Shown here one piece after another: positions 12,770 through 61,315 of a DNA stretch of 64,000 bases (the first letter of the stretch is position 1; every line of letters begins with the position of its first letter). The position numbers were made by a program, and so were the translations under genes. The notes beneath the pieces were generated by a model, which was given only the letters and a program-made list of their open reading frames with translations, did no database searches and was not told the origin of the DNA. The DNA is taken from contig JALHMS010000022.1 in NCBI GenBank assembly GCA_022843925.1, positions 19,083 through 83,082 of the forward strand, in the 5' to 3' direction. The DNA comes from Burkholderiales bacterium (lineage in GTDB: Bacteria; Pseudomonadota; Gammaproteobacteria; Burkholderiales; Ga0077523).

Positions 12770-12859
<90 letters not shown>

Positions 12860-18126: not shown

Positions 18127-18642
18127 ATGACCGCCAGGCACCACCGCATCACCCTGTTCGTCGAGGCCTACCTCGAGACGCACAACTCGGCCAAGGCAGC
18201 CATTGCCGCCGGCTACAGCCGCCGATCGGCCAAGCGGATTGGCTACAACCTCCTCCGGCATCCTGCGGTCACCTCCGCCCTGCGGGGCCGGCAGGTCGAG
18301 GTTGCCCATGCGGCTCGCCTCCGCGCCGAAGACGTCCTCACGCAACTGGCAGCGATCGTCCATGCCGACATCCGGCGTGTCTTCCATCGGGACGGGCGCG
18401 TGAAGATGCCGCACGAACTGGACGCCCAGACGGCCGCAGCGATCTCACTGTTCCATTTCGATATCGTTGACGGCGTTGTCGTGGGGGCTCGGATCCACTT
18501 CTGGAACAAGGTGACCGCCATCGAGAAGGCGATGAAGCACCTTGGTCTGTTCGATCGCGATCACGCGCAGGGGCGCGACGTTGCCGCCGAACTGCTCGCC
18601 CATGTCGCGCAGCACAACCAGGCGCTGGCGATCCGCGCGTAG
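18127..18642 (+). CDS. Terminase small subunit
   Basis: FVEAYL...NSAKAAIAAGYSRRSAKRIGYNLLRHP and KVTAIEKAMKHLGLF. Confidence 0.85.
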   Translation: MTARHHRITLFVEAYLETHNSAKAAIAAGYSRRSAKRIGYNLLRHPAVTSALRGRQVEVAHAARLRAEDVLTQLAAIVHADIRRVFHRDGRVKMPHELDAQTAAAISLFHFDIVDGVVVGARIHFWNKVTAIEKAMKHLGLFDRDHAQGRDVAAELLAHVAQHNQALAIRA

Positions 18643-26022: not shown

Positions 26023-26787
26023 TTAGGACCGAGCGTATAGCCGATCGATGATCTCGAGCATGTCGGCCGGCAACTTCCCCCTCGCCGTCTCGGCGATTTC
26101 CGCAGGTACACCGAACCTCGCTTCCGCTACCGCACCCGCGATGGCCGCCACGGTGTCGCTGTCACCACCGATCGAGATCGACAGTCTGATGGCGTGCTCG
26201 AAGTTCCGCCCCTCGAGCGCACAGATCAGCGCCTCCGGCACCGTCTCCTGGCAAGTCTCGTTGAAGTGGTAGATCGGGCGGATCTGGTCGGTCGTGCGAT
26301 CCATGTCGTACCCGTGAGTCCGAGCGACGTGATCCCGGATCCTCTCGGCCGACTCGCCCTGCCGCGCGAGGAAGATCGCCTCGGCCGTAGCGACGGCGCC
26401 CTTGATGCCCTCCGGGTGGTTGTGGGTCACGACGGTCACGCGCCGCGCCAGATCCGCCACCTCGGCCACCGATCGGGCGAGCAGGCCGGCGGGCCCTACC
26501 CGCATCGCCGACCCGTTGCCGAAGCTGTCGTACGGCTGAAGGCTGCGCCTGCTGATCCACTGCGCGAACCGGCCACCGTACCCGCGATGGGGATAGCGCT
26601 CGCACCAGTCGAGCAGCACCGGTGCCGGGTCGACATCATCGAGCAGCGCCTGCGCCACGGCGATCGTGCAGACGGTGTCGTCCGTGAAGTCGCTCCGCGG
26701 ATGGAAGAAGGGTTCGAAGTCGGTTCGACGCAGGTTGTCGAACTCGTACACCGATCCGACGATGTCTCCGATGATGGCGCCGATCAT
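26023..26787 (-). CDS. ADP-ribosylglycohydrolase family protein
   Basis: GAIIGDIVGS, TDDT, GNGSAMR, THNHPEG, GGDSDT; start at ATG 26787 overlapping the upstream stop. Confidence 0.92.
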   Translation of the reverse strand: MIGAIIGDIVGSVYEFDNLRRTDFEPFFHPRSDFTDDTVCTIAVAQALLDDVDPAPVLLDWCERYPHRGYGGRFAQWISRRSLQPYDSFGNGSAMRVGPAGLLARSVAEVADLARRVTVVTHNHPEGIKGAVATAEAIFLARQGESAERIRDHVARTHGYDMDRTTDQIRPIYHFNETCQETVPEALICALEGRNFEHAIRLSISIGGDSDTVAAIAGAVAEARFGVPAEIAETARGKLPADMLEIIDRLYARS

Positions 26788-27347
26788 TCCGTCTTCCCTC
26801 CTGCGATTCGAATACGGTCGTGCCGCGCCCACTCGCGCACAAATTGCCTCTGCTCCGGCGTCTGCGGTGATTCCGGATGCCACGCGCGCTTCTTCTCGCT
26901 CACCGTCGCCCAGTGCTCCGCGAGTGTCTGCAGCGCCGACTGTCCTGTCTGACCATGTCGCACGAGCCAGCACCCCACGATCGTGCCGGTACGCCCCACG
27001 CCACCCCAGCAATGGACGTAGGGCGCGACACCGGCCGCGAGAAGTGCATCGATGCGATCGAGAATCCGGTTTGCGTAGGTCGCCGTCTCGGGAATGTCCA
27101 TATCGCAGATCGGCCACCGCTCGTGGGACATCGACTGTTGAAGCCCCGCCGAGGCGGTGGTCAGCAACGGAGCGTAGGGACGAAGCTCGTGCGGCTGGGT
27201 GAGATCGATGAAATGCCGTACGCCGAATTCCCCGATCCGCGCGAGCCGCGGCAGCGCAACACTGTCGCGCTCGGCCCCGGGGTACTCCCCGGCCATGAAC
27301 TGGTCAGGTAGCACCCAGTAGCAGTTGTCGTGAGGGCGAATTGGCAT
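26784..27347 (-). CDS. Dual-specificity/protein-tyrosine phosphatase family protein
   Basis: VHCWGGVGRTG CX5R motif; PQTPEQRQFV. Confidence 0.9.
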   Translation of the reverse strand: MPIRPHDNCYWVLPDQFMAGEYPGAERDSVALPRLARIGEFGVRHFIDLTQPHELRPYAPLLTTASAGLQQSMSHERWPICDMDIPETATYANRILDRIDALLAAGVAPYVHCWGGVGRTGTIVGCWLVRHGQTGQSALQTLAEHWATVSEKKRAWHPESPQTPEQRQFVREWARHDRIRIAGGKTE

Positions 27348-27389: not shown

Positions 27390-27418
27390 TTGACGCATCC
27401 CGCCTTCCGCGCGAGACT
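27390..27418 (+). promoter_or_regulatory. Putative sigma70 promoter of the SAM-riboswitch operon
   Basis: TTGACG-17 bp-GAGACT, placing +1 near 27424-27425 at the start of aptamer 1. Confidence 0.55.
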
Positions 27419-27424
27419 TCAACT

Positions 27425-27480
27425 GCGCCGATTTGATTTTTCCAGCTTGCGGGCGCCCTACAAATGCCGCTAAAGCGAGA
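27425..27480 (+). ncRNA. SAM-II riboswitch aptamer 1
   Basis: P1 GCGCC/GGCGC, loop GATTTG, CTTGCG pairing with CGC-T-AAAG, ACAAAT linker: canonical SAM-II pseudoknot signature, upstream of metK. Confidence 0.85.
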
Positions 27481-27496
27481 CTCCCGCGAAACCTCC

Positions 27497-27540
27497 GCAG
27501 AGCCCGCTTTGGTGTGTCCCCCAAGCGGGCTTTTGCATTT
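27497..27540 (+). terminator. Intrinsic terminator-like hairpin downstream of aptamer 1
   Basis: AGCCCGCTT (27501-27509)/AAGCGGGCT (27523-27531) followed by TTTGCATTT. Confidence 0.7.
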
Positions 27541-27564
27541 CCGGGCGACGCGCAGGCCACGGCC

Positions 27565-27620
27565 CCCGCCGAGTTGATCGACATCTTGCAGGGCGGGTAA
27601 CAAGTGCTGCTAAAGCGTCG
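27565..27620 (+). ncRNA. SAM-II riboswitch aptamer 2
   Basis: P1 CCCGCC/GGCGGG, loop GAGTTG (variant of GATTTG), CTTGCAG pairing with CTGC-T-AAAG, CGAC/GTCG P2a. Confidence 0.75.
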
Positions 27621-27676
27621 CCGCTCCGCCCGCCCCGGGAGCTGCGCCGATCCCCCCGGGGCAGTGGGAGCACGCC

Positions 27677-27808
27677 ATGCAACACCTCTTCGACAAGCGC
27701 TCGACGGCGACCCTTCGCCGCTTCTGCGACACCCCCTCCAGTCCGACCGCCACACCCGCAGCACCCCTGATGCGCCTCCGCATCCAGGAGAACACCCATG
27801 CCCGCTAG
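27677..27808 (+). CDS. 43-aa leader ORF overlapping the HD gene start
   Basis: GGGAG SD then [43 protein letters not shown]; below the ORF-track cutoff. Confidence 0.4.
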   Translation: MQHLFDKRSTATLRRFCDTPSSPTATPAAPLMRLRIQENTHAR

Positions 27809-28841
27809 CACCGACATGCCGCGCCTCGGCGCCCGGTTCACCGACGCCTTCGCACTCGCGCACGAACTGCATAGCGCCCAGGTCCGGAAAGGTACCGACA
27901 TTCCCTACGTGAGCCATCTGATGGCCGTCGCCGCGATCGTCATCGAACACGGTGGCGACGAGGACGAAGCCATCGCGGCGCTCCTGCACGATGCCGTGGA
28001 GGACTGCGGTGGCTTATCGGTGGCGGAGCGGATCCGCGCTGCCTTCGGTGACCGGGTCGCCAACCTCGTCCTCGAACTGTCGGACTCCTTGGCCGACACG
28101 CGCGACGACACCACCGACAAGGCCGACTGGCAGACGCGGAAGCGCACCTACCTCGCGCACCTGGCCACCGCCTCACCCGCCGCCCTGCGTATCTCCGCCG
28201 CGGACAAACTCCACAACCTGCGCAGCATCGTCGCGGACCTCCGTCGTGAGGGCGACGCGCTCTGGGTCCGATTCAACGCCGGCCGGGACGATCAGCGCTG
28301 GTACTACCACGAGCTGCTGAAAGTGCTGACTGGTCGCGCCCCTGCGGCGCTCGTGGAAGCACTCGCCGAGAGCCTGCAGGATCTCGAAGCCGCCATCGCC
28401 CCCGGCGACCTCGCGAAGGCCATCGCCATCGCGGCCTGCGTCCACATCACCCAGCGCGACAAGGGCGGCGGTGCGTACATCCTCCACCCGCTGCGGGTGA
28501 TGAACGCCCAGACCACCGAGCCCGCCCGCATCGCCGGCGTGCTGCACGACGTCGTGGAAGACGGCATCGGCTGGACGGCGGACCGCCTCGCGCGCGAAGG
28601 CTTCTCCAGCGAAGTCATCGAGGCCGTGCAGCACCTCACCAAGGTGGAGGGCGAGGACTACGACGCCTTCGTCGATCGCGCCGCCAGCAACCCCATCGCG
28701 CGGGCCGTGAAGCGCGCCGACCTCGAGGACAACATGGACCTCCGCCGTCTGGGCACCGTCCGCGAGAAGGACCTCGAGCGCCTCGAGAAGTACCACCGCA
28801 ACTGGCGGAAGCTCGCCGCGTTCTCCGAAGGAGGAATCTGA
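27798..28841 (+). CDS. Tandem double HD-domain protein (RelA/SpoT-hydrolase/Mesh1-like)
   Basis: Domain 1 PYVSHL...ALLHDAVED...ADKLHN; domain 2 YILHP...GVLHDVVED...ADLEDN. Confidence 0.88.
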
Positions 28842-29998
28842 TGCTCATCCGTGACGGCCTCTTCTCGTCCGAGTCGGTCTCCGAAGGCCACCCGGACAAG
28901 CTCGCCGACCGCGTGTCGGACGCCATCCTCGACGCCTTCCTCGCTGTCGAGCCCGACGCCCGCGTCGCCTGCGAGACCCTGCTGGCCGACGGCCTCGTCG
29001 TCATCGCCGGCGAGTTCAAGACCCGCGACCGCGCGCTCTTCGATCACATCCGCGGCACCGCGCCCGAGATCGCGGCGCGCGTGCTGCGTGCCTCCGGCTA
29101 CGGCCCCGCCTGGATGGGCGTGGACTTCGACCGGCTCGACTTCGTGGTGCGCTTCAATCACCAGTCGCCCCACATCGCCATGGGCGTGGACCGCGCCGAC
29201 GGCGTGCTCGGTGCCGGCGACCAGGGCCTCATGTTCGGCTACGCGTGCGACGACACCCCGGAGCGCATGCCCCTGCCCATCCACCTCGCGCATCGACTCG
29301 TGAAGCGCCAGGCAGAACTGAGGGCGCATGGCGATCTGCCATGGCTGGGCCCCGATGCGAAGTCCCAGGTGAGCGTGCGGTACCGCGACGGCGAGCCCCA
29401 TCACGTGGAGGCCGTCGTGCTCTCCACCCAGCACCACGAGAGCGTCGACATCGACACCGTGCGAGACATCGTTCGCGCACGAATCATCGAACCGGTCATC
29501 CCACCGGAACGTCGCGCCCCCGACATGAAGGTGCTCGTGAACCCCACGGGCCGCTTCACCGTCGGCGGCCCCCACGGCGACACCGGCCTCACCGGCCGCA
29601 AGATCATCGTCGACACCTACGGCGGCGCGGCACCCCACGGCGGGGGCGCGTTCTCGGGGAAGGACCCGTCGAAGGTGGACCGCTCCGCCGCCTACATGGC
29701 GCGCTTCCTCGCCAAGCAGGTGGTGTCCCGTGGATGGGCCAGGAAGTGCCTCGTGCAGCTCGCCTACGCCATCGGCGTGGCCGAGCCGGTGAGCTTCGTC
29801 GTGGAGACGTTCGGCACCGGGAAGAGATCGTCCGAGGACATCACCGCGGCGCTCTCGGCCGAGTTCGATCTCACACCGGCGGGAATCATCCGGCGGCTGG
29901 ATCTGAAGCGACCGATCTACGAGCTCACCACGAACTACGGGCACTTCGGGCGGGAGCTGCCGGAGTTCACGTGGGAGCAGGTGGTGCCCGTGGGCTAA
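28841..29998 (+). CDS. metK: Methionine adenosyltransferase (SAM synthetase), island-borne
   Basis: [23 protein letters not shown] and GGGAFSGKD signatures, [14 protein letters not shown]. Confidence 0.96.
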
Positions 29999-30092
29999 CC
30001 GCAGGGGAAGTGTCGTCGACGTATCCGGAGGCTCACGTGGTGCGCCTCTGGATCCGGATACTCGACCCACTCACTTGCAGGAGATCACCCGC

Positions 30093-30944
30093 ATGAGCAT
30101 CCCCGATCTGTCGGACCACATCGCTCGAGCCGCCGCCCTGATCGCGGAGGCCGACGCCATCCTCGTCACGGCCGGCGCCGGCATCGGCATCGACTCCGGC
30201 CTCCCCGACTTCCGCGGTCCAGGCGGGTTCTGGAGGGCCTATCCGGCGCTCGGCCGACGCAGCCTGGAATTCACCGACATCGCATCCCCTGCCGCCTTCG
30301 ACGCGCTGCCCCGCGTCGCCTGGGGCTTCTACGGCCATCGCCTTGCGCTCTACCGCGCCACGGTGCCCCACGAGGGCTTCCATATCCTGCAGGCCTTCGG
30401 ACAGCGCACGCGGCGCGGGCTGCGCGTCTTCACCTCGAACGTCGACGGGCAGTTCCAGAAGTCCGGCATTCCGGAGGAACACGTCGCCGAATGCCACGGG
30501 TCGATCCACCACCTGCAGTGCCTGGAGAACTGCGGTCGCGCACCATGGACCGCGACCGACCTGACGCCCGACATCGACGAAGCCGCCTGCGAGTGGCGCG
30601 GCGACCTGCCCACCTGCCCGGACTGCGGTGGCCTGGCGCGACCGAACATCCTGATGTTCAGCGACTACGGCTGGACGGGGCGGCGCTACGAAGCAGCGGA
30701 GCTGCGACTGGTGGACTGGGAGGTGAACTCACGGAAGCTCGTCGTGATCGAGATCGGTGCCGGCACGGCGATCCCGTCGGCGCGACGGTTCGGTGAGTCG
30801 ACCGGGCAACCGCTGATTCGGATCAACCCGAGAGAGGGCGCCGTGACTCGGCCGCGAGATGTGCCGTTGCGGCTGGGAGCGCTGGAGGCGTTGCAGCAGA
30901 TCGCGGCTGTACTTGATGAGACGAAAGCAGGGAAGACAACATGA
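30093..30944 (+). CDS. Sir2 family NAD-dependent deacylase
   Basis: GAGIGIDSGLPDFRG, SNVDG, ECHGS, Zn ribbon CxxxC/CxxC, RPNIL; AGGAG SD before ATG 30093. Confidence 0.92.
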   Translation: MSIPDLSDHIARAAALIAEADAILVTAGAGIGIDSGLPDFRGPGGFWRAYPALGRRSLEFTDIASPAAFDALPRVAWGFYGHRLALYRATVPHEGFHILQAFGQRTRRGLRVFTSNVDGQFQKSGIPEEHVAECHGSIHHLQCLENCGRAPWTATDLTPDIDEAACEWRGDLPTCPDCGGLARPNILMFSDYGWTGRRYEAAELRLVDWEVNSRKLVVIEIGAGTAIPSARRFGESTGQPLIRINPREGAVTRPRDVPLRLGALEALQQIAAVLDETKAGKTT

Positions 30945-31705
30945 CCACGACCACCGACGAGATGCCCATCCGGATTCCCGCCGCACTGCTCACTGCCTAC
31001 GCAGCCACCCTCTACGAAATCGACGCGCCCGACGGAACGGCATTGATCCGCATCGGGCAACCCGTTCCGGAGGTGCTGCACGCGTTGACATTCCACTGGG
31101 ACAGGGTCGCCGTCGTCACGGCGTTCAATCCATTCAGCGTGAAGCTCTCGGAGGCGAAGAACCTTCGGCGCCACGAAGTCCTCCGTGGAGCAGTCGCTGC
31201 CGCTGGACACCGGCTGCTCGGCGGTGCCGGGCGCGGCGCCTCAGGGGAGTGGCCGTCAGAGACCAGCCTGGCGATCTTCGACGCAACAGACGACGAGCTC
31301 GACGACTGGATGCTCACCTTCGGCCAGAACGCGATCGTCGTGGCAACGCGCGACGGGAACGCGGCACTGCGGTTGCATCCGCACGAGGTGTCGAGGGTGG
31401 CAGGGGACCCCCATGCCGCGCAACGCAGCGCTGCAAGACTGTGGACCCATGCAGCGGCATCCAAAAACATCACGCTACTGGCGATGGCCCTGCATCCCGA
31501 CGTCGAATACCTCGGACCTGACGCCGACGACGGCGCGGTCGGGCGAACGGCGGTGGTCGATCGGCTGAACCTCGATGTCTTGGCCTCTACCGAGGCGACG
31601 CCAGCGATGCTGGCGTCCTTCCGCATGCGCGAAGGGCAGATCCGCCGGATCGATGGGCGAGAACACGCGCGGCACGGGCCGCACTCCGAGGAGACTCCAG
31701 CATGA
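30941..31705 (+). CDS. DUF3293-like protein with an extra C-terminal domain
   Basis: AY.AT.Y, VTAFNPFS...N...H..L, W.SE.S, FGQNAIV pattern. Confidence 0.7.
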   Translation: MTTTTDEMPIRIPAALLTAYAATLYEIDAPDGTALIRIGQPVPEVLHALTFHWDRVAVVTAFNPFSVKLSEAKNLRRHEVLRGAVAAAGHRLLGGAGRGASGEWPSETSLAIFDATDDELDDWMLTFGQNAIVVATRDGNAALRLHPHEVSRVAGDPHAAQRSAARLWTHAAASKNITLLAMALHPDVEYLGPDADDGAVGRTAVVDRLNLDVLASTEATPAMLASFRMREGQIRRIDGREHARHGPHSEETPA

Positions 31706-32103
31706 GCGACACCGATCGTTTCTATGTCGACCACGTGCAACTCCGCGCCCGTGGCTGGACCCGCACGATGGTCGAGCGGTTCCTCGTGCGGCCAGACCGC
31801 TGGGAGACCGTGAACTACTGGGCGAACTTCAAGGGCAAGGCCACCTACTTCGTCGAGCGTGTGCTGCTGGCCGAGCACAGCCCCGCGTTCAAGCGCGCCT
31901 TCGAAGCATCCGCCCGGCGGCGGCGACTTGCGGTGCAGGCGCTGACCGAGATCGCCACCACCCGGGCGCTCGTGGACGACGACTACCGCGCGTGGCTGAA
32001 GACGGTGACACCCGAGGATGTTCAGCTGATGGTGGCACTCACGGAGGCGGCGCGAGCCTTCGAAGAGGTGCGGGCGCGGGGGTACAGGACGCCGCACAAG
32101 TAG
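31702..32103 (+). CDS. Hypothetical protein, last gene of the operon
   Basis: ATGA coupling, GAGGAG SD; LRARGWTRTMVERFLVRPD. Confidence 0.7.
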   Translation: MSDTDRFYVDHVQLRARGWTRTMVERFLVRPDRWETVNYWANFKGKATYFVERVLLAEHSPAFKRAFEASARRRRLAVQALTEIATTRALVDDDYRAWLKTVTPEDVQLMVALTEAARAFEEVRARGYRTPHK

Positions 32104-33069
32104 CAGAGTCTGCTAACGCAAGCGTTCCTCGGTATCGCTGAAGCTGCTGTTCGAGATCCTTGCATTTTGGGAGATTGCCGCGGCTTCCACGCCACCGTGA
32201 GCCTTGTTGCTCAGCGGAAGCGGCGAGTCGGCCGGCGCCGTCGTGACGATTTCTTCACGTTGACGCTCTCGCCCCCTGCACATTCTCGGCACCGTCGCGC
32301 AGAATCGGGGGGACACTGCAGCACCCCGCAATCGACAACGAGCCCGGATGGTTGATGCCACGCAGCGCCCTCGCCGACAGCCAGTGCACTCTTTCCGGCG
32401 CCGGGTTCTTGCAACTGGAACGCGCAGGCTTGCAGGAATGGCCCGATCCCCAATCGCTTGGCTGATCGGTGGACAGCAGGAGGTTGACCAGCCATACGCG
32501 GCTGGAAGTCGAAGGGCGCTCACGAGAAGAACGCGTTGGAGATCTCTGGTTCGCACGCCTCCGAGACCCGCTTCCATCCCGCGCTCGATGCCCGCATCGA
32601 GAGTCGGGACCCGACAGGGTCCTCTGTGCACGGAATCGATCATCGGCGAACGCGGACCACCGCGTGCGGTGTCCGGCTATCCGAAGTCGCAAGGGTGTGG
32701 CAAATACGTTCCTGCCCGCGTCGCAGCCCGGTCTACGCAGCTCGGTTTGTCCAGCGACGCTGTGGCAGGTGCAGTTTCCAATGCGAACGCGGTGGCGGTG
32801 CACGAATGGCGACTGCGACCGCGGAGAGCATGAAAGAATGGCGCTCGGAAAAGCAGGCCGAGTGGATTTCGGATGGCGTGTTTGCAGGTTTTGACGAACC
32901 CTTTCTCCGGAGATGCATCGACGTTGATGAACGCTTTCTGTCTCGACAAACAGCGTCGGTTGGTGACTCACGAATCCCCTGGCCGTGGCCGGCCGATCGC
33001 GGCTCATGGCGGTAGTTGGTCCGTACCGAGCGAGCAGAATTGATCGAAAGCCGAGCCAGTTCCGGTTCC

Positions 33070-33852
33070 ATGGTGTTCCCGACCGCATCGCCTGCACTGG
33101 AGTCGTTCGGGATCAAGTTCTCCACCGGGGGGGCGCATGTCAGCCGGACGATGATGCTGACCGAGCTCGAGGCGTTGCTTGCCGCGGTACCCGCGGGCTC
33201 GATCCCGGAGGACTATCGCGCCGCCGTGCTGGGGCGCAATGTGCTGGGCAAGACCACCGTCAGCACCCGGCACAAGACCCTTCGTCACATGCGTGAGTTG
33301 TACTCGCTCGACGAATCTGTCCCGATCTTCGGGCTGCTGCGCACACTCGAGGCTGTCGACAATGGAGCTAGCCTGCCCTTGCTGGCCATCCAGGTCGCGT
33401 GGTCGCGCGACCCGCTTCTCCGGGCCACGACCGAGCCTGTGCTCGACGCCACTGTGGGCGCGATGGTGGAGCAGGCAAGCCTCGCGCATGGCTTCGAAGC
33501 CGCCTTTCCGGATCAGTACTCAGACGCCACGCTTCGAAGGACCATCCGGAACGCGGCCTCCTCGTGGACCCAGGCAGGGCACCTCATCGGGCGTGTGAAG
33601 AAGATCCGCCAGCAGATCAAGCCCACACCGGTGGCAGTCACCATGGCGCTTTTCCTCGGGCGGCTTGCGGGGAATCACGGCACGGACGTCTTCTCCAGCC
33701 CGTGGGTCCGTCTGCTCGATCTCGGCGCCGACCGAGCGAGGGGTATGGCGCAGGAGGCGCACCGAGCGGGCCTGCTCGATATGCGCGCCGTGGGCGAGGT
33801 CGTCGATCTGAGCTTTCCGCGGCTCGACAGGTTCGAGAGACCATCTTCATGA
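33070..33852 (+). CDS. brxA: BREX BrxA-like protein
   Basis: First gene of the coupled BREX run; GGAHVSRTMM, ASSWTQAGHL; symbol assigned mainly by position. Confidence 0.65.
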   Translation: MVFPTASPALESFGIKFSTGGAHVSRTMMLTELEALLAAVPAGSIPEDYRAAVLGRNVLGKTTVSTRHKTLRHMRELYSLDESVPIFGLLRTLEAVDNGASLPLLAIQVAWSRDPLLRATTEPVLDATVGAMVEQASLAHGFEAAFPDQYSDATLRRTIRNAASSWTQAGHLIGRVKKIRQQIKPTPVAVTMALFLGRLAGNHGTDVFSSPWVRLLDLGADRARGMAQEAHRAGLLDMRAVGEVVDLSFPRLDRFERPSS

Positions 33853-34406
33853 GCGCCGTCGAACGCCTGCTTGCCAATTACACACGCCAGGTCCGCCTGC
33901 CGTGGTCGGCCAACATGTCCGGCAAGCAGCGGGTGTGGTTCGCTGTCTATCCGCCGGCCGAAGAGCGCCGGATTCGGGCGAAGCAACCGCAGTTCGAGGC
34001 CACTACCCTGGAAGCCCAGCATGGGTGGCTGAACGTCGACCTCACAAACTTGCTTCCTCAGTGGATTGCGGCGCACGAGTACCGCGAGAGCATCTTCGCG
34101 GAGCCCGAGCACTTCAGCGTAAGCGGCGAACTCGAGCACCTGGCGGTGGAGCGGGTACGTCAGGCCTGCATCAGCGAAGACGCGAACGCCGGCACCGTCG
34201 TCGCCATCACCGGCCTGGCCACCCTGTTCGACTTCATGCGCGTGTCCAGCCTCGTCGAGCGCGTGGAAGACAGCGTCCGGGGGCGGCTCCTGGTGTTCTT
34301 TCCTGGCGAGTACACCGGCAACGTGTACCGTTTCATGGACGCGCGCGACGGCTTCAACTACATGGCAGTGCCCATCACCGCAATCGAGAGCTTCGTCCAG
34401 CCATGA
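33849..34406 (+). CDS. brxB: BREX BrxB (DUF1788-like)
   Basis: GRLLVFFPGEY...YRFMDARDGFNYMA; ATGA overlaps on both sides. Confidence 0.8.
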   Translation: MSAVERLLANYTRQVRLPWSANMSGKQRVWFAVYPPAEERRIRAKQPQFEATTLEAQHGWLNVDLTNLLPQWIAAHEYRESIFAEPEHFSVSGELEHLAVERVRQACISEDANAGTVVAITGLATLFDFMRVSSLVERVEDSVRGRLLVFFPGEYTGNVYRFMDARDGFNYMAVPITAIESFVQP

Positions 34407-37400
34407 TCAATCGCAGCCTCTACTTCCGTGACCCGGCCACGCAGGAGTTGCTCAACAACGGCGTCTCGAAGGTGTCCGAGATCGGCCGCGACGCCAGCCA
34501 GATCAAGACGCTCCGCTTCGAGCTGCAGAACTTCGTCTGCGACGGCGAATACGCGCGCGGGATGGAACGCATCCTCGGCGCCTATCTCGGTGGACTCGGA
34601 AAGGCCGAACAGAACGCCGTCTGGGTGAGCGGCTTCTTCGGCAGCGGGAAGTCGCACCTGGTCAAGGTGCTGCGCTACCTGTGGGAGGACTACCGCTTCG
34701 ACGACGGCGCCACCGCGCGGTCGCTCGTCACCTTGCCCGACGAGATCAGCGCCTTGCTGACGGAACTGAGCAACCGGTCCAGGCCGCTGGGCGGTTTGCG
34801 CGCCGCTGCCGGCACTCTGGGCGCCGGGTCGATGGACAACGTGCGCCTCGCCTTCATCCAGCTGGTGCTGCGCGCCGCCGGCCTGCCCGAAAACCTCGCC
34901 CAAGCCAGGTTCATGCTGTGGCTGCGCGCGTCCGGCCTGGAGGCCAAGGTGCAGGAGGCGCTGAAGCAGCAGAAACGTGATCTGGCCAAGGAAGTGCTCA
35001 GCTTGAAGCTGTCCACGCCGCTGGCCGAGGCGCTGGTCGCCGCTGACCCACGGTACGGCACGACCACCAATGCGCAGGCCAGCATCCGCGACGAGTTCAA
35101 GGAGAGCGGTTCGCCGACGGTGGACGACGCATTGAAGATCGTCCACGAGATCTTCGCCGATGGCGGGCAACTGCCCTGCACGCTGCTCGTCGTGGACGAG
35201 ATCCAGCAGTTCATCAGTGACAAGGTCCAGCGCGCACACGACGTGCAGGAAATCGCCGAGCACGTCTGCACCGATCTCAACAGCCGGCTCCTGCTGGTCG
35301 GCACCGGGCAGTCGGCGCTGCATGGCGCCACACCCGCGCTCCAGCGGCTGCAGGCCCGCTTCGCCGTCAAGGTGCAGTTGTCCGATACCGACGTCGAGAG
35401 CGTGATCCGCAAGACCGTGCTGCGGAAGAAGCCCGAGCACGAGACGACGCTGTCTCGATGCATGGCGGGCAACCAGGGCGAGTTGGCGCGCCACCTGCAA
35501 GGAACGCGGCTCGCCGCCACGCACGAGGACGATGCCTTCTTCGTGGCCGACTACCCGCTTCTGCCCACGCGGCGGCGATTCTGGGAACGGGTGCTGCGCA
35601 ACACCGACCACTCCGGTACGAAGGCGCAGTTGCGTTCGCAGTTGCAGATCGTCTTCGAAGCCACCCGCCAGACGGCGGAGGCGGCCGTGGGATCGGTGGT
35701 GCCGGCCGACTTCATCTACGACCAGATCTCGACCGACCTCCTCAACTCCGGCGAGCTGGAGCGCGAGTACGACGAGATCATCCGCAAGCAGCGCGACGGC
35801 ACGCCCGAGGGCGAGCTGCGATCGAGCCTGTGTGCCCTGGTGTTCCTGATCGGCAAGCTGCCGCGCACGCCCGGCGCCGACGACGGGGTGCGGGCCAACG
35901 TGGAGACACTGGTGGACTTGCTGGTGGCCGACCTGTTGGCAGACCGCCCTAGGCTCGAGCAGCAGGTGCCGAAGCTCCTCGCGCACCTGGTCGCGCATGG
36001 ACAGCTGATGGCGGTGGAGACGGAGTACCGGCTGCAGACGCGTGAAGGCGCAGTCTGGACCCACGAGTTCAACCGCCGCCGCACCACCGCGCTCAACGAC
36101 GACCAGCGCATCAGCACCAGGCGGGCCGAGTTGCTGCGCGATCGTGCGAAGCAGGCGCTCAAGCCGGTGTCGCTCCAGCAGGGCAATTCGGGCACGGCAC
36201 GCAAGCTGGTGTTCGATCTGTCGTCGGCACGGCCCGCTGGCGGCAGCGATGACGTGACCTTGTGGTTGCGCGACGGCTGGAGCGACGACGAGAAATCGGT
36301 GCTGAACGACGCCCGTGCCGCCGGCGTCGACAGCCCCATGCTCTTTGGCTATCTCCCGCGCGTGCACCATGAAGAACTGAAGCAGGCCATCGCCTCGCAG
36401 ATCGCCGCCCAGGAAACGCTGGACGCCCATGGCATGGCGGGCGGCCCGGAAACCATCGAACCCCGCAAGGCCGTCGAGACCCACCTGGCCGTCGCCCAGC
36501 ATCGCATCCACGATCTTCTCGGCCAGGTGATCGACGGCGCCAAGGTGTTTCTCGGCGGCGGGCAGGAAGGCAACGGCATCGAACTGGCCGACAAGGTGCA
36601 GGACTCGGCCGACAGCGCCCTGGTGCGCCTGTTCCCGCAGTTCTCCGAGGCCGACCACGCCAACTGGGGACAGGTGGTCTCGCAAGCGCGCGCCGGCAAC
36701 GTGGCCGCCCTGGCGCAGGTGGGGTTCCAGGGCAACCCCACGCAGCACGCGGTGTGCCGCAAGGTGCTGGAGTACGTCGGTGCCGGCAAGAAGGGCAAGG
36801 ACCTCCGCGACAACTTCAAGGGCGCCCCCTACGGCTGGCCGCAGGACGCCATCGACGGCGCGCTTTATGTGATGCTGGTGGCGGGCAACCTGCGCGCCAC
36901 CGTCAATGGCCAGCCGGTGAACGCGTCGCTGCCGCAGAACCAGCTTGGCACCGCCAGCTTCTATGTGGACGTCCCGCCGCTGGACGTGCAGCAGCGCCTG
37001 AACCTGAAAGCCCTGTTCCAGAAGGCCGGCATCACCACCCAGAACGGCAAGGAGTCCGAGGCCGCGGCCCAGGCGCTGGCGAGGCTGCTGGCCCTGGCGG
37101 CCAGTGCCGGTGGACCCGCGCCGCGCCCCGAGCCGCCCGACACCCTGGCGGTGACGGCGCTGCAGATGCTCAGCGGCAATGCCCAGTTGCTGCAGATCCA
37201 CGAGCAGAAGGACGACCTGGCCTCCAGGCTGGCCGCGTGGAAGAAGAGCGCCGACGCCATCGGCAAGCGCTGGCCCGCCTGGGAGCGGCTGCAGGACTTC
37301 CAGCGCTTTGCCGCCGGCCTGCCCGAGGCCGACGCCACTGCCGTCTCCATCGCGGCGATCACCGAGGGCCGCAGCCTGCTGGCCGAGCCCGACCCGGTGC

Positions 37401-37840
37401 CCGAACTGATCAAGCAGCTGGCCACTGCGTTGCGCCTCGCGCTCGGGAAGCTGCAGGACGACCTCGCGGACGCCTTCAAGGCGGGCGAAGCCTTACTGGC
37501 GGCATCGCCTGTGTGGGCCGGTCGCACCGACGAGCAGCGCAGCGCCATCGCGACGGCCTGCCAGCTGGCGCCACCGCCCAAGGCCGCCGTCGGCACCGAT
37601 GACGAGATCCTGGCCGCGCTGACGGCGCGCAGCCTGACCGACCGCCGCAACCTGCTGGACGCCGTGCCGCAGCGCTTCGCCCGCGCGCTGGAAGAGGCCG
37701 GCAAGCTGGCCACGCCCGACGCCGTGCGCGTGCCACTGCCGGCCGCCGTCATCAAGACCACCGACGAGCTGGACCACTGGCTGGCCGGCGTGCGCCAGCA
37801 GGTGCTGAGCAGGCTCGAGAAAGGTCCGGTGATCCTGTGA
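34403..37840 (+). CDS. brxC: BREX P-loop ATPase BrxC
   Basis: WVSGFFGSGKSH Walker A, LLVVDEIQQF Walker B, PYGWPQDA; start at ATG 34403. Confidence 0.92.
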   Translation: MINRSLYFRDPATQELLNNGVSKVSEIGRDASQIKTLRFELQNFVCDGEYARGMERILGAYLGGLGKAEQNAVWVSGFFGSGKSHLVKVLRYLWEDYRFDDGATARSLVTLPDEISALLTELSNRSRPLGGLRAAAGTLGAGSMDNVRLAFIQLVLRAAGLPENLAQARFMLWLRASGLEAKVQEALKQQKRDLAKEVLSLKLSTPLAEALVAADPRYGTTTNAQASIRDEFKESGSPTVDDALKIVHEIFADGGQLPCTLLVVDEIQQFISDKVQRAHDVQEIAEHVCTDLNSRLLLVGTGQSALHGATPALQRLQARFAVKVQLSDTDVESVIRKTVLRKKPEHETTLSRCMAGNQGELARHLQGTRLAATHEDDAFFVADYPLLPTRRRFWERVLRNTDHSGTKAQLRSQLQIVFEATRQTAEAAVGSVVPADFIYDQISTDLLNSGELEREYDEIIRKQRDGTPEGELRSSLCALVFLIGKLPRTPGADDGVRANVETLVDLLVADLLADRPRLEQQVPKLLAHLVAHGQLMAVETEYRLQTREGAVWTHEFNRRRTTALNDDQRISTRRAELLRDRAKQALKPVSLQQGNSGTARKLVFDLSSARPAGGSDDVTLWLRDGWSDDEKSVLNDARAAGVDSPMLFGYLPRVHHEELKQAIASQIAAQETLDAHGMAGGPETIEPRKAVETHLAVAQHRIHDLLGQVIDGAKVFLGGGQEGNGIELADKVQDSADSALVRLFPQFSEADHANWGQVVSQARAGNVAALAQVGFQGNPTQHAVCRKVLEYVGAGKKGKDLRDNFKGAPYGWPQDAIDGALYVMLVAGNLRATVNGQPVNASLPQNQLGTASFYVDVPPLDVQQRLNLKALFQKAGITTQNGKESEAAAQALARLLALAASAGGPAPRPEPPDTLAVTALQMLSGNAQLLQIHEQKDDLASRLAAWKKSADAIGKRWPAWERLQDFQRFAAGLPEADATAVSIAAITEGRSLLAEPDPVPELIKQLATALRLALGKLQDDLADAFKAGEALLAASPVWAGRTDEQRSAIATACQLAPPPKAAVGTDDEILAALTARSLTDRRNLLDAVPQRFARALEEAGKLATPDAVRVPLPAAVIKTTDELDHWLAGVRQQVLSRLEKGPVIL

Positions 37841-37910
37841 GCGCCGCCCGACCGTTCCGAGGCGCCCGCTCCCGCTTCGCGGGACCAGCCGCAGGTCGTC
37901 GGGGGCACCC

Positions 37911-40900
37911 ATGAGCAGCCTGCCCACCCCGCTGCGCCGGCAGCTCGAAGGCGCCGTGCGCCAGGCCCGCAAGATCGCCGAGGCGGGCGCCCGCCACGCG
38001 CTCGAAGCGCTGGCCGTGCACGAGCCGGACCCCTACCGCCACATGGACGAGGCCGCGCGCGCGCTGCGCCGCCAGCTGCGCGCCCAGGCCAAGCAGCTGG
38101 GCGACGGCGAAAGCCGGCACAAGCCCGGCGCCTACGAGATCAAGCATCTGGCCGAGAAGCTGGCCTACGACCAGTGGCACCGGCTGCTGTTCGCCCGCTA
38201 TCTGCTGGAGAACGACCTGCTGATCTCGCCCGAGCATGGCGTGGCGGTGTCGCTGGACGACTGCGAGGAACTGGCGCCCTCGGTCGGATGCAAGGACGCC
38301 TGGGCCGTGGCGGCCCGTTTCGCCGCCAGAGAACTGCCCGAGATCTTCCGCGCCGACGACCCCGCCGGTGCCGTCGAGCTGGCCGTCAACGACCGCCAGC
38401 CGCTGATCGCCCTGGTCACCGGCCTGCCCGTGGAAGTCTTCACCGCCAGCGACAGCCTGGGCTGGTGTTACCAGTTCTGGCAAGCCGAGAAGAAGGACGA
38501 GGTCAACGCCGCCGGCAACAAGATCGGCGCCGACGAACTGCCCGCCGTCACGCAGTTGTTCACCGAGGACTACATGGTGGACTTCCTGCTCGACAACACG
38601 CTGGGGGCCTGGCATGCGGGCAAGGTGCTGGCGGCCAGGCCGGAACTGGGCCGGACGGCGGAGAGCGAATCCGAACTGCGGGAGGCGGTGGCCTTGCCGG
38701 GTTGCCCTTGGACGTATCTTCGCTTCATCCAGGCTGACGACGGCGTCTGGGTGCCTGCGGCGGGCACGTTCGACGGCTGGCCCCGGTCCGCCATGGAGTT
38801 GAAGTGCCTGGACCCCTGCATGGGCAGCGGGCACTTCGTGGTGGCCATGTTCGAGCGCGTGGTGGCGCTGCGCGTCGCGGAAGAAGGTCTGGACGAGGCA
38901 GAGGCGGTGGCTGCCGTGGTCGGCGACAACCTGTTCGGGTTGGAACTGGACCCGCGGTGTACGCAGATCGGCGCGTTCAATCTGGCGCTGGCGGCGTGGC
39001 GGCGGGTGGGACACTGCGTGTTGCCGGCTATGAACATCGCCTGCTCGGGACTGGCGCCGAATGCGAAGCAAGCGGATTGGTTGAAGCTGGCGGGCGGCGA
39101 TGACCGTCTTGAGCGCGGTATGGCACGGCTCTATGCGTCGTTCGCTGACGCGCCAGTCCTTGGCAGTCTCATCAACCCACGCAACGAAGCGGGCGATCTG
39201 TTAGTGGCGGCGTTCCATGAACTTCAGCCGCTACTGGAAAGAGCGCTTGCGCAAGAAGCCACCGACGACTTGGCGCACGAGATGGCTGTGACCGCGCGCG
39301 GACTGGCCAAAGCAGCCGAGATCCTCGCGGGGCAGTTCACACTCGTGGTTACCAACGTGCCCTACCTGGGGCGCGGAAAACAACACACCGTCCTTCAGGA
39401 CTACTGCGCCCAGTTCCATAGCGAAGGGAAATCGGATCTGGCGACCTGTTTTCTTGAGCGATGCATCGACTTCTGCGGCCGCTCTGGGCATGCTGCATTG
39501 GTTACACCCCAGAACTGGTGGTTCAGTTCGACATACAAGGGTTTAAGGCAGCAAGTAATTACCGAATGCAGCCTGCACTTTGCTGTGACTCTTGGCGAAG
39601 AAGCCTGGCAAGCATTCGGCAATCGCGGACCATTCGCCGGACTTATTTGTCTGGGTGCTACTGGCGCAAAGTCCGATCAACGCTTTGCAGGCATCGATGC
39701 ACTTCAAAAGGCGACCATTCCGGAGAAAGTTAGGGAACTTGAGAATGGGGCCGTGCTGATGCTGCTACAGGCGGACTCTCGCCTCAACTCTGACTGCCGC
39801 ATTGCAGTCGCACTGCCTAACCGTGGCGCGATCCTCGAGTCTTTTGCCAAGAGTTATCAGGGAATAAAAACCGGAGATGATGAGCGATTCGGCCGATACT
39901 TTGTCGAGCTATGCAAAATCTCAAGATATTGGAAGTTTTATCAAGGTGGCGTATCAAATATCTGCTTGACCGGAGGTATGGAGCAAGTGCTGTTCTGGGC
40001 TGCCGACGGGAGTGGTTTGGCCCGAAAGCAGGGTATCAGTGCCTGGGGTAAGTCAGGTGTGCTGGTATGCCTGATGCGCGACCTCCCGGCGACACGGTAC
40101 TTTGGAGACGTGTTTTCGAGCAGCGTGTCGCCGCTGGTCATCGAGAATAGCGAACATCTCCTGCCAATTTGGTCATTCTGTAGCTCGGATGATTTCCGCG
40201 CGGAAGTGAGAAAGATCGATAGGAGAGTTTGCGTTACAAATGCAAATCTGCTGAAGGTGCCTTTCGATCTGGAGTATTGGCAAGAGGTTGCAGCTCAGAA
40301 GTACCCGCAAGGCCTACCGAAGCCGTTCTCGAGCGACCCAACTCAGTGGTTGTTCAATGGTCACCCAAAGGACGCCGATCAGCCATTGCAGGTGGCCGTG
40401 GCGCGCCTGCTCGGCTACCACTGGCCCCGCCAGACCGGCTCCAGCTTTCCCGATTGCCCGGCCCTCGGCCCCGACGGCCTCGAAGCATTCGCAGACACCG
40501 ACGGTATCGTGCCCCTCAGCCCCACCAAAGGCGAAGCCGCCGCCGCCGAGCGCTTGCGCGACCTGCTCGCCCGGGCCTACGGCGCGGAATGGAGCGCATC
40601 CCTGCAGCAGGAGTTATTGGCCCAGGTCGACGGCGCGGGAACCTCGCTGGAGGACTGGCTGCGCAACGCCTTCTTTGAGCAGCACTGCAAGCTGTTCCAG
40701 AACCGCCCCTTCATCTGGCACCTCTGGGATGGCCACAAAAGTGGCTTCAGCGCGCTGGTGAACTATCACAAGCTAACCCACGCCAACCTGGAGAAGCTGA
40801 CCTACGCCTACCTGGGTGACTGGATCCGCCGGCAGCAGGCCGCGGTGGACGCGGGGGAGTCAGGCAGCGATGCGCGCCTGCAGGCGGCGAAGAACCTGCA

Positions 40901-41273
40901 GGCCACACTCGCGCTGATCCTCGAAGGCGAGCCGCCGTTCGACCTCTTCGTGCGCTGGAAGCCGCTGTCGCAGCAGGCCATCGGCTGGCAGCCGGACCTG
41001 AACGACGGCGTGCGGATGAACATCCGCCCGTTCATGGCGCGCGACATTCCCGGCGGCAAGAAGGGCGCGGGCGTGCTGCGCACCAAGCCCAACATCAAAT
41101 GGGACAAGGACCGCGGCAAGGAGCCCACGCGCTCCAAGGCGGAGTACCCGTGGTTCTGGGGCTGGGACGGGAAGACCGAGGACTTTGCTGGCGTCGGCAA
41201 GGAGCCTGACGGCAACCGCTGGAACGATTGCCACTACGGCAATGCATTCAAGCGCGGCAAGCGCCAAAGCTGA
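37911..41273 (+). CDS. pglX: BREX adenine DNA methyltransferase PglX/BrxX
   Basis: TQLFTEDYMV, DPCMGSGHF (motif I), TNVPY (motif IV variant), PDLNDGVRMNIRPF. Confidence 0.9.
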   Translation: MSSLPTPLRRQLEGAVRQARKIAEAGARHALEALAVHEPDPYRHMDEAARALRRQLRAQAKQLGDGESRHKPGAYEIKHLAEKLAYDQWHRLLFARYLLENDLLISPEHGVAVSLDDCEELAPSVGCKDAWAVAARFAARELPEIFRADDPAGAVELAVNDRQPLIALVTGLPVEVFTASDSLGWCYQFWQAEKKDEVNAAGNKIGADELPAVTQLFTEDYMVDFLLDNTLGAWHAGKVLAARPELGRTAESESELREAVALPGCPWTYLRFIQADDGVWVPAAGTFDGWPRSAMELKCLDPCMGSGHFVVAMFERVVALRVAEEGLDEAEAVAAVVGDNLFGLELDPRCTQIGAFNLALAAWRRVGHCVLPAMNIACSGLAPNAKQADWLKLAGGDDRLERGMARLYASFADAPVLGSLINPRNEAGDLLVAAFHELQPLLERALAQEATDDLAHEMAVTARGLAKAAEILAGQFTLVVTNVPYLGRGKQHTVLQDYCAQFHSEGKSDLATCFLERCIDFCGRSGHAALVTPQNWWFSSTYKGLRQQVITECSLHFAVTLGEEAWQAFGNRGPFAGLICLGATGAKSDQRFAGIDALQKATIPEKVRELENGAVLMLLQADSRLNSDCRIAVALPNRGAILESFAKSYQGIKTGDDERFGRYFVELCKISRYWKFYQGGVSNICLTGGMEQVLFWAADGSGLARKQGISAWGKSGVLVCLMRDLPATRYFGDVFSSSVSPLVIENSEHLLPIWSFCSSDDFRAEVRKIDRRVCVTNANLLKVPFDLEYWQEVAAQKYPQGLPKPFSSDPTQWLFNGHPKDADQPLQVAVARLLGYHWPRQTGSSFPDCPALGPDGLEAFADTDGIVPLSPTKGEAAAAERLRDLLARAYGAEWSASLQQELLAQVDGAGTSLEDWLRNAFFEQHCKLFQNRPFIWHLWDGHKSGFSALVNYHKLTHANLEKLTYAYLGDWIRRQQAAVDAGESGSDARLQAAKNLQATLALILEGEPPFDLFVRWKPLSQQAIGWQPDLNDGVRMNIRPFMARDIPGGKKGAGVLRTKPNIKWDKDRGKEPTRSKAEYPWFWGWDGKTEDFAGVGKEPDGNRWNDCHYGNAFKRGKRQS

Positions 41274-41344
41274 GGCCTCGGGAAGATGATCCGACGCAAC
41301 CATCCGCCGGTGGCGGCGGCGAGCAGGCATCCTGGGGAGTGACC

Positions 41345-42334
41345 ATGGACGAGATCGACGCATCCGCTGAATTGCTCGATGCCACAGGGCGCTGGCGCGC
41401 CCGCGACGTCGCCTACTGGGCCGGTCGTTGGGATCGCCTGGCCCGACTGGTGCCGACGTTCACGATCGAGCCGTTTCGGGCAGGCCCGGACTCGCCCGCC
41501 AACCCGCACATCCGGGCCGTCGTCCGTCAGCCGTTGACCGTTACCGAGCGGCCCATTCCCGTGGGCACGGTCTCCAATGCCTATCAGCTTGCCCAGCATC
41601 ACGAAGTCGTTACACGCTGCTTCGAGGGACTGCGACGGGTCGGTGTCGACCCCGCGCCGTTGCGATGTGAAGTCGGACTGACGCCGTTGGGGGAGTGGAT
41701 GAACTTTCGGGCCTACTTTCCGGAGTCTCACCACTACACGCCGAGAGATGGCAAGCCATTGGGGCTGCGTCTGGAATGCTTCAACTCCGTGGACGGGTCC
41801 AGCCGCCTCGTCATTCTCCTGGGGTGGTTGCGGTTCGTTTGTGCAAACGGGCTGGTGATCGGCGAAACCAAGGCCGAACTGAGAGACGTACACGACGAGC
41901 ACTTGAGTCTGGATGCCATCCCGGAGCTTGTGGTCTCGGGCATGACTGCGGTGACCGCTGACCTGCAGCGCCTGAAGGGCTGGGAGGCTGCCGAAGTCTC
42001 CTCCGTGCAGTTGGAGAAATGGGTCAACGGCAAGGTGTCCTCGACGTGGGGCAAGAAGGCCGCCTGCCGCGTGTTCCACATCTGCAGGAGCGGACGCGAC
42101 GTTGAAATCGTGGACCCCTTCGCGAAAGGGGAAGCGACCGAGAAGCCGGTCAAGGCGATGGGGGATGTGCCGGGTACAGCCCGTCCGGCCAGGACCCTCT
42201 ACGACGTCAGCCAGGCACTGTCGTGGATCGCCACCCAGCGCAGTAACACCGAAGAGCGGGTGGAGTGGCAGGGCGCCATTCCCGAGCTGATCGGCTCGTT
42301 GCGTGCGGGCGCTGCAATCCGCAGCACCACCTGA
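41345..42334 (+). CDS. DUF932-like protein inserted in BREX
   Basis: VSNAYQL, FNSVDGSS...LRFVCANGL pattern; GGGGAG SD. Confidence 0.7.
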   Translation: MDEIDASAELLDATGRWRARDVAYWAGRWDRLARLVPTFTIEPFRAGPDSPANPHIRAVVRQPLTVTERPIPVGTVSNAYQLAQHHEVVTRCFEGLRRVGVDPAPLRCEVGLTPLGEWMNFRAYFPESHHYTPRDGKPLGLRLECFNSVDGSSRLVILLGWLRFVCANGLVIGETKAELRDVHDEHLSLDAIPELVVSGMTAVTADLQRLKGWEAAEVSSVQLEKWVNGKVSSTWGKKAACRVFHICRSGRDVEIVDPFAKGEATEKPVKAMGDVPGTARPARTLYDVSQALSWIATQRSNTEERVEWQGAIPELIGSLRAGAAIRSTT

Positions 42335-42345
42335 CCGTGCCCTCG

Positions 42346-43482
42346 ATGGCTACGAAGAAGTCCGCCGTCGGTACCAGCGAGCCCAAGGCTCGCAAGCCCG
42401 CGCTCGTGGCGGCGAAGCGCAAGGTGAGCGCTGCCACCCCCAGCCCGGCCGGGCTGCTGGCCGAGATTCGAACGCTGATCCTGCAAGCGCGCCAGACGGT
42501 GGCACAGGGCGTCAATTCGGCCCTGGTGCTGCTGTACTGGCAGATCGGCCACCGCATCCGCACCGATGTTCTGAAGGCGAAGCGGGCGGACTACGGTCAG
42601 CAGATCGTCCACGCGCTGAGTGGAAAATTGACGGCCGAGTTCGGGCGCGGCTTCACCATGAGCAACCTGTTCAACATGGTTCGCTGCGCAGAGGCCTTTC
42701 CCGATGCGAAGATCTTGCACGCACTGAGTGCAAATTTGAGCTGGACGCATCTGCGCCGGATCATCTATCTGGACGACCCGCTCCAGCGCGATTTCTATGC
42801 GGAGATGTGCCGTCTGGAACGCTGGAGCACGCGCACGCTGCACGAGAGGATCCAGAGCATGCTGTACGAACGCACGGCGCTGTCGAAGAAACCCGACAAG
42901 CTGATCGCGGCCGAGCTGAAGAAGCTGCGCGACGACGGCAGGCTGTCGCCGGACCTCGTGTTTCGCGACCCCTACCTGCTGGACTTCCTGGGCCTGAAGG
43001 ACACCTATTCCGAGCAGGACCTCGAGGCAGCGATCCTGCGTGAGATCGAGGCCTTCATGCTGGAGATCGGCGCGGGCTTCTGCTTCGTCGCCCGACAGAA
43101 GCGCATGCAGATCGATGGCCGCGACTACTACCTCGACCTGCTCTTCTATCACCGCAAGCTGCGTCGGCTGGTGGCTGTCGAACTGAAGGTGGGCGACTTC
43201 GAAGCGGCGGACAAGGGCCAGATGGAGCTGTACCTGTCCTGGCTCGCGCGACACGAGTGCGAGCCCGGCGAAGCCGAGCCGCTGGGCATGATCCTGTGCG
43301 CAGGCAAGAGCGACGAGCATGTCGAACTGATGGACCTGCAGAAGAGCGGCATCCACCTGGCCAGCTACCTGACGCGACTGCTGCCCAGGAGGCAACTGGT
43401 GAAGAAGCTGCACGAGGCCGTGCGTCTGGCGAGGCAGCGGCTGCGCGCCGGACAGAATGGCAGCATCGAGGGATCGGCATGA
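42346..43482 (+). CDS. DUF1016/YhcG PD-(D/E)XK nuclease-like protein
   Basis: LYWQIG, LSWTH, FRDPYLLDFL, DLLFYHRKLRRLVAVELK, GQMELYL. Confidence 0.9.
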   Translation: MATKKSAVGTSEPKARKPALVAAKRKVSAATPSPAGLLAEIRTLILQARQTVAQGVNSALVLLYWQIGHRIRTDVLKAKRADYGQQIVHALSGKLTAEFGRGFTMSNLFNMVRCAEAFPDAKILHALSANLSWTHLRRIIYLDDPLQRDFYAEMCRLERWSTRTLHERIQSMLYERTALSKKPDKLIAAELKKLRDDGRLSPDLVFRDPYLLDFLGLKDTYSEQDLEAAILREIEAFMLEIGAGFCFVARQKRMQIDGRDYYLDLLFYHRKLRRLVAVELKVGDFEAADKGQMELYLSWLARHECEPGEAEPLGMILCAGKSDEHVELMDLQKSGIHLASYLTRLLPRRQLVKKLHEAVRLARQRLRAGQNGSIEGSA

Positions 43483-45803: not shown

Positions 45804-45807
45804 GTCC

Positions 45808-61249: not shown

Positions 61250-61315
61250 GGGCCTGCAATTCGGATGAACTCGCCCCGGAAACGTGGTGTGACGGTGATA
61301 AGTTAGGGTGCCCCA

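Follow-up and report, generated by a model that had tools for sequence, protein, structure and literature searches.

The closest described relatives of the first of the two aptamers presented here are the SAM-II riboswitches of Rfam family RF00521 and the betaproteobacterial 'metXZ' element (Leyn 2014, PMC4239095), which a later account (PMC5473149) named canonical SAM-II; pseudoknot, core and a downstream terminator are shared. Most SAM-II riboswitches act on transcription according to PMC6061858, which contradicts the view of a preliminary description of this locus that the class is mostly translational. Tandem arrangements have been described as well. In Pelagibacter, SAM-II is followed by SAM-V, and transcription and then translation are controlled by one ligand (PMC9481103, PMC6061858). 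Moreover, 44 SAM-II doublets are reported in the survey of Sherlock et al. 2022 (PMC9481103), among them cases with a terminator followed by a ribosome binding site (RBS). The SAM-II/SAM-V pair, the one tandem named in the preliminary description, is thus not the only known case, and the steep "double lock" response suggested there is the published expectation for such tandems. For betaproteobacterial metK, the comparative study Leyn 2014 (PMC4239095) states that no regulator was known.

Here we analyse a leader in a 64,000-nucleotide stretch of Burkholderiales DNA (the window), in which two SAM-II-type aptamers of different sequence flank an intrinsic terminator and precede a translation platform (Table 1). 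We regard it, with a probability of roughly 0.78 judged from the sequence, as a real and probably functional bi-mechanism tandem SAM-II/SAM-II OFF switch heading a mobile low-SAM operon. As in the doublets reported in PMC9481103, two SAM-II aptamers are combined, the first in front of a terminator and the second at an RBS. Such doublets are published, and tandem pairs were found in at least 13 of 150 further genomes from this order, so that the architecture cannot count as new and the tandem as such is an ordinary finding. The second aptamer and the genes behind the leader are of wider interest.

Table 1. Position and properties of the features in the window
Feature	Position	Strand	Properties
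Divergent DSP/PTP phosphatase and ADP-ribosylglycohydrolase genes	26023..27347	-	Pair also beside the G801 copy of the cassette
Putative sigma-70 promoter	27390..27418	+	-35 TTGACG 27390-95, 17-nt spacer, weak -10 GAGACT 27413-18
Aptamer 1, canonical betaproteobacterial SAM-II (U10)	27425..27477	+	RF00521 28.9 bits, R1 33 bits; P1 GCGCC 27425-29 with GGCGC 27452-56; core GAUUU 27430-34, UUGC 27447-50, GCUAAAG 27469-75
Predicted antiterminator	27469..27513	+	Aptamer strand GCUAAAGCG 27469-77 with terminator arm CGCUUUGGU 27505-13
Intrinsic terminator	27501..27540	+	Hairpin of -23.1 kcal/mol, stem about 27501-09 with 27523-31, then UUUUGCAUUU; U tract interrupted
Aptamer 2, SAM-II metK-leader subtype (G at position 10)	27565..27620	+	R1 61.5 bits; P1 CCCGCC 27565-70 with GGCGGG 27592-97; P2a CGAC 27579-82 with GUCG 27617-20; core GAGUU 27571-75, UUGC 27586-89, GCUAAAG 27609-15
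Predicted translation platform	27616..27679	+	Anti-SD GCUCC 27623-27 with alternative partners GGAGC 27638-42 (early hairpin, ON) or SD GGAGC 27667-71 (OFF)
Leader ORF	27677..27808	+	43 codons, C-rich, overlaps HD start; peptide not conserved
Two-domain HD protein, RelA/SpoT hydrolase (small alarmone hydrolase) type	27798..28841	+	Pfam HD_4
Second, accessory SAM synthetase (MetK)	28841..29998	+	TIGR01034 over cut-off
Sir2-family protein, DUF3293 protein, 133-aa ORF	30075..32103	+	Last three genes overlap at stop/start
BREX (brxA, brxB, brxC, pglX, pglZ, brxL)	33016..47859	+	PADLOC; complete; 0.9 kb after the cassette, neighbour only
Third compact SAM-II-like element, G10	61212..61280	-	Directly before SNF2 helicase gene; no Rfam match

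Overall organization of the leader

The positions and the common pairing scheme given in the preliminary description were borne out, and both aptamers are able to form the P1/P2 pseudoknot. Two further close copies of the cassette, one in the genome G801 (L311) and one on the metagenome contig L161, carry HD genes 93% and 88% identical to that of the window, and both aptamers are 100% identical there (57/57 and 56/56). The homology of the three copies begins at the -35 box. This box lies 40 nt before the core of aptamer 1, and in 22 of the 26 first aptamers a -35-like hexamer precedes the core at a distance of 39–46 nt. A consensus scan of the leader detected neither promoter nor terminator, because the -10 box (GAGACT) is weak and the run of U residues is broken. 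A gene of SAM metabolism follows, metK being the second long gene 3' of the leader and 1.2 kb downstream of the aptamers. At the Rfam gathering thresholds, a tRNA was the only match in the whole window.

Aptamer 1 and the terminator

Against RF00521, aptamer 1 is matched with an E-value of 1.7e-4 in 701 nt and of 3.2e-4 genome-wide, whereas aptamer 2 gave no Rfam match at E≤10; neither reaches the gathering threshold of 36 bits. The two other SAM-II leaders of the host score 33.3 and 27.5 bits and are also under the cut-off, which indicates that the alphaproteobacterial RF00521 model fits this lineage poorly; one homologue, L231, exceeds the cut-off with 37.8 bits. Elements of the aptamer-1 type precede metZ-like and metH-like genes of the host (named from their translations). 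Aptamer 1 differs from the described metXZ/RF00521 elements in remaining under the gathering cut-off and in standing before island genes rather than before metX or metZ.

The terminator postulated between the aptamers is supported by the hairpin and the U run, and a matching hairpin with a U run is present in related leaders. The predicted antiterminator deviates from earlier proposals. The pairing GCGGGC:GCCCGC, which the preliminary description had suggested and which corresponds to the central GC-rich regions considered speculatively by Leyn (PMC4239095), is complementary, but it breaks P1 and amounts to -22.5 kcal/mol in the nascent-transcript fold. In contrast, P1 together with GCUAAAGCG:CGCUUUGGU, which uses the 3' strand of the aptamer, reaches -29.9 kcal/mol. 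In the full-leader fold, P1 plus the terminator is favoured with -37.2 against -34.9 kcal/mol. The comparison was extended to 22 related leaders, some of them near-duplicates. In 17 of these, pairing of the 3' aptamer strand with the terminator arm is better than with shuffled arms, and in 14 it outpairs the strand proposed in the preliminary description. An ensemble test of the arm–aptamer pairing did not beat shuffled aptamers (for the window, 0.325 of the controls were as high). With an intrinsic terminator and a predicted competing fold, the first aptamer shows the composition of the transcriptional half of a bi-mechanism tandem.

A match to the sRNA Bp2_287 (RF02424) on the minus strand (27393–27535) was considered as an explanation of the region and rejected, as the same match turns up on the strand opposite other canonical leaders of the SAM-II-plus-terminator type and resembles their reverse complement. 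RF02424, listed as 'Burkholderia sRNA', was also observed opposite SAM-II leaders in L147, L195, L208, L222, L226, L231 and L249, and the family may be a reverse-strand annotation of such leaders.

Aptamer 2 and a SAM-II subtype in metK leaders

For aptamer 2, a covariance model (R1) was built from 31 betaproteobacterial housekeeping metK leaders with the window excluded. R1 recognizes aptamer 2 with E 6e-13 and also scores aptamer 1, so that the assignment of both as SAM-II-type aptamers stands on RF00521 for the first and on R1 for both. Due to the G in place of U10, aptamer 2 is filed as a SAM-II variant. The metK-leader consensus consists of a GAGUU or GCGUU core, followed by GAC-A-NC-UUGC and GCUAAAG-CGUCG. 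Aptamer 2 shares with the housekeeping leaders the GAGUU core, these two segments and the anti-SD layout. The housekeeping element stands alone and directly before metK, whereas aptamer 2 is second in a tandem and separated from metK by the leader ORF and the HD gene.

In the alignment of the metK leaders, which contains 30 distinct homologues, 99.6% of the cells are paired, and 6 of 15 pairs show two-sided changes. Its covariation score exceeds that of 500/500 shuffles. The sequences are related and P1 pairing was part of the selection filter, three covarying pairs in P2/P2a lying outside that filter. The preliminary description had read the same pairing in two sequence-distinct aptamers as natural covariation. 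The alignment of the metK leaders supports the SAM-II pseudoknot. A G10-type element occurs within 250 nt of the start in 29 of 80 metK loci, which were chosen by protein similarity, and R1 gives hits in 104 of the 151 genomes from this order; no SAM-II element was found at the host's own metK. A loose pattern search over 401 genomes gave matches about as frequently as a reversed control and was used for candidates only. A pattern scan of viral contigs gave two matches, both due to chance and inside coding sequence.

We consider it quite probable that the G10 subtype is the missing regulator of metK across Burkholderiales. Invisible to Rfam and placed before metK in many Betaproteobacteria, it would make the SAM-II consensus broader at a position of the pocket that has been taken as invariant. 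No description of the subtype was found in the article texts covered. A G10 aptamer was also observed behind a SAM-I/IV aptamer in L245 (1430–1645), where the pair precedes an AAA-type ATPase gene (family assigned by eye); the aptamer recurs in L246 and L247.

Ligand of the two aptamers

The residues U11, U21, G22, U44 and A47, which contact SAM, and the triple-forming G8, U11 and U12 are present in both aptamers. U10 of loop L1, for which complete conservation across the Rfam seed is reported (PMC3764141), is found in aptamer 1 and replaced by G in aptamer 2. On the basis of this exchange, aptamer 2 might sense SAH or MTA, or bind SAM very differently, and the leader would become a two-input gate. 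Besides the conservation of U10, the absence of the GAUUU core from 61/61 single metK leaders is in line with such a gate, a count biased by search patterns containing G. On the other hand, U10 is reported to hydrogen-bond U44 and not SAM (PMC3303485), and the U11/U21 pair that reads the sulfonium is intact. Furthermore, G10 (L283) and U10 (L287, L288, L292–L294) are both found in second aptamers in front of the same small-ORF/MATE operon. We therefore judge a two-input gate very improbable.

A tally over 108 distinct aptamers, which carries the bias of the G-containing search patterns, gave for the single metK leaders GAGUU in 57, GCGUU in 3 and GAAUU in 1 case, for first aptamers of tandems GAUUU in 16/16, and for second aptamers GAGUU in 9, GAUUU in 6 and GCGUU in 1. 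Because the SAM contacts are kept, metK is the main gene and G10 and U10 alternate in one gene context, a different ligand is unlikely, and SAM is the likely ligand of aptamer 2. Of the suggestion in the preliminary description that affinity or ligand differ, only the former is retained, the affinity of aptamer 2 possibly deviating from that of the U10 type.

The translation platform and the leader ORF

Downstream of aptamer 2, an SD (GGGAG 27666–70) precedes the ATG at 27677. The GC hairpin noted before the SD in the preliminary description (27632–39 with 27655–62) is correctly placed, but it does not cover the SD. It is nested in a larger fold whose closing helix pairs GCUCC with the SD, and it is this anti-SD that is predicted to hide the SD. 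Translational control after aptamer 2, as proposed there, is the preferred reading, the anti-SD being present and conserved in the homologues. Unlike SAM-V, which is described as covering the SD directly (PMC9481103, PMC6061858), aptamer 2 possesses a 4-bp P2a and a separate anti-SD located ca. 45 nt before the SD. The leader gave no Rfam match to SAM-V and its SD lies ca. 50 nt past aptamer 2, which places it outside that class.

Compared with shuffled platforms, the SD is more occluded in 48 of 60 metK leaders, but in only 7 of 13 second aptamers of tandems. In the window, an early hairpin makes use of the CGUC tail of the aptamer (3.0 vs 0.9 kcal/mol, a value equalled by 1 of 30 shuffles); across leaders, this signal reaches p≤0.1 in no more than 15 of the 53. 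Equilibrium folding of 43 metK leaders revealed no ligand-dependent switch of the SD, which is closed in both states with a mean unpaired fraction of 0.15 vs 0.12, and in the window the OFF fold is favoured by 6.8 and 8.0 kcal/mol in the two states. Consequently, the ON state must be kinetic if the second switch is real. A rise in the cost of SD opening upon blocking the aptamer (37 of 53 leaders) was discounted, since making part of the sequence unavailable by itself shifts the cost that way.

The leader ORF is open at 43 codons and overlaps the HD start in all three copies. Its codon changes are predominantly nonsynonymous (nonsynonymous:synonymous 8:1 and 14:3), and the idea of a functional peptide was rejected on account of this neutral drift. 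In composition the ORF is extreme, with 57 C and 24 G in 121 nt and a skew of 0.41 that only 0.04% of 55,644 genome windows reach. Together with the presence of Rho in the host, this C-richness suggests polarity. It is not a general property of such leaders, as the mean skew is 0.20 in tandems (n=23) and 0.18 at metK starts.

These data also bear on the question whether only aptamer 1 regulates the operon and aptamer 2 is a relic gating a meaningless short ORF. The neutral drift of the peptide, the dominance of the OFF fold at equilibrium and the broken second aptamer in L231 would agree with a relic. So would the good SD of the HD gene itself, due to which the influence of aptamer 2 may hardly extend past the leader ORF. 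Such decay is at odds with the invariance of aptamer 2 (56/56) and the 55/57 identity of the platform in two copies whose coding genes are 4–12% apart, and with the recurrence of the tandem before unrelated downstream genes. We thus hold the relic to be rather improbable and prefer two working switches.

Proposed mechanism

For the preferred bi-mechanism switch we propose the following scenario. Transcription would start at about P1 of aptamer 1. When SAM is bound, GCUAAAGCG would be locked in the pseudoknot, the terminator could form and transcription would stop near 27535; when SAM is absent, GCUAAAGCG would pair with the 5' arm of the terminator and the polymerase would read on. Aptamer 2 might then decide whether the leader ORF is translated. 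In the absence of SAM, the CGUCG tail would help the early hairpin to hold the anti-SD, so that the ribosome can load, whereas bound SAM would draw the tail into P2a and allow the anti-SD to close on the SD. An untranslated C-rich leader might subsequently silence HD-metK-Sir2 by lost coupling or by Rho polarity. In sum, the extra SAM synthetase and the nucleotide-stress enzymes would be made only at low SAM.

Distribution of tandem SAM-II leaders

Besides the 13 or more genomes with tandem pairs detected by R1, a junction pattern found at least 8 complete tandems and the one with the broken second aptamer (L231) among 120 metagenome loci. In 8 of the 13 genome tandems listed, the leader precedes a small ORF and a MATE exporter gene; the leader therefore needs no defence context. 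Chromosomal tandems of this kind occur in several families (L283, L287–L290, L292–L294) before a MYDC/MFDC ORF of ca. 105 aa, for which three scanned sequences gave no Pfam match, and the exporter, which is thereby linked to low SAM. In L319 (G662), a tandem leader with GCGUU as second core stands before small ORFs and faces an Hma defence system.

The downstream operon and the island

The HD protein matches the PDB entries 7qoe (E 5e-48) and 7smg, a '(p)ppApp hydrolase' (E 5e-32). The accessory MetK is of full length, exceeds the NCBIfam cut-off and aligns in the active-site motifs. It shares 57% identity with the host's copy on C1 and falls into a separate clade of 12 rows (SH-aLRT 95) in a quick tree of 54 rows hand-picked from about 90 candidates, the partial gene of L314 being left out. 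The Sir2, DUF3293 and 133-aa genes probably belong to the same operon as HD-metK, judged from their arrangement.

The island region is bounded by a tRNA at 12770 and an integrase near 63400. The cassette occurs sporadically: of 24 further genomes from the genus, one has it, and one more carries a tandem leader before other small ORFs. On a mobile island, and next to a defence system that depends on SAM, low SAM would thus induce a second SAM synthetase together with nucleotide-stress enzymes. The third element of the island scores 53 bits with a model (R2) that includes close relatives. Similar compact elements before SNF2 helicase genes were seen in L240, L241, L242 and L243; in these relatives the SD reads GAGGAG, in the window GACGAG, and the window copy may therefore be weakened.

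A possible link to phage-induced SAM loss

The T3 SAMase is reported to block BREX by cleaving SAM and inhibiting the host MetK, an effect lessened by a heterologous MetK (bioRxiv 10.1101/2023.02.27.530186). As this enzyme both destroys SAM and inhibits MetK, a spare MetK is a plausible counter. The cassette might accordingly be conceived as a SAM-depletion alarm that senses phage-caused SAM loss and rebuilds SAM by a divergent MetK, thereby keeping BREX or restriction working. A complete BREX system 3 kb downstream fits this idea, as do SAM-dependent methylases near other accessory-clade copies, a type III RM in L312 and type I RMs in L019 and L313, taken as raw proximity. Methylases are, however, common on islands. 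BREX lies beside only 1 of the 3 close copies, the G801 copy being accompanied by Zorya and a type III RM and that of L161 by a helicase and a TGT-like gene, and SAM-II is detectable in front of only 5 of the 12 accessory-clade MetK rows. The tandems before MATE genes also speak against a specific defence role. A fixed cassette–BREX link was rejected on the basis of the 1/3 count, which leaves an anti-phage role possible only, and we consider the alarm doubtful.

Similarly tentative, and in our estimation unlikely, is a broader picture. In it, the island SAM-II switches, including the third before SNF2, would sense at the RNA level a collapse of SAM caused by phage, while spare MetK, alarmone hydrolase and sirtuin would sustain SAM-dependent defence such as BREX and the G10 subtype would be the missing metK regulator, this last part being quite probable when taken alone. 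In the parts of the literature covered, no published link between SAM riboswitches and defence islands was found. The cassette offers a concrete test case of whether bacteria counter phage SAM lyases by riboswitch feedback.

Several minor observations concern the island itself. The G801 locus (L311–L312) has the same island backbone with a 98% identical WYL gene, BREX being replaced by Zorya type I and a type III RM. It carries an N-formylglutamate amidohydrolase-like gene after Sir2, a similar gene being found in the window downstream of SNF2 (57349–58128). A gene for a 560–573 aa protein without Pfam match is present in two copies of 76–83% DNA identity (22388–24070 and 53976–55697). Finally, DnaB helicase and small terminase genes (15866–18642) adjoin the tRNA, which suggests a phage-satellite-like element at the left island end.
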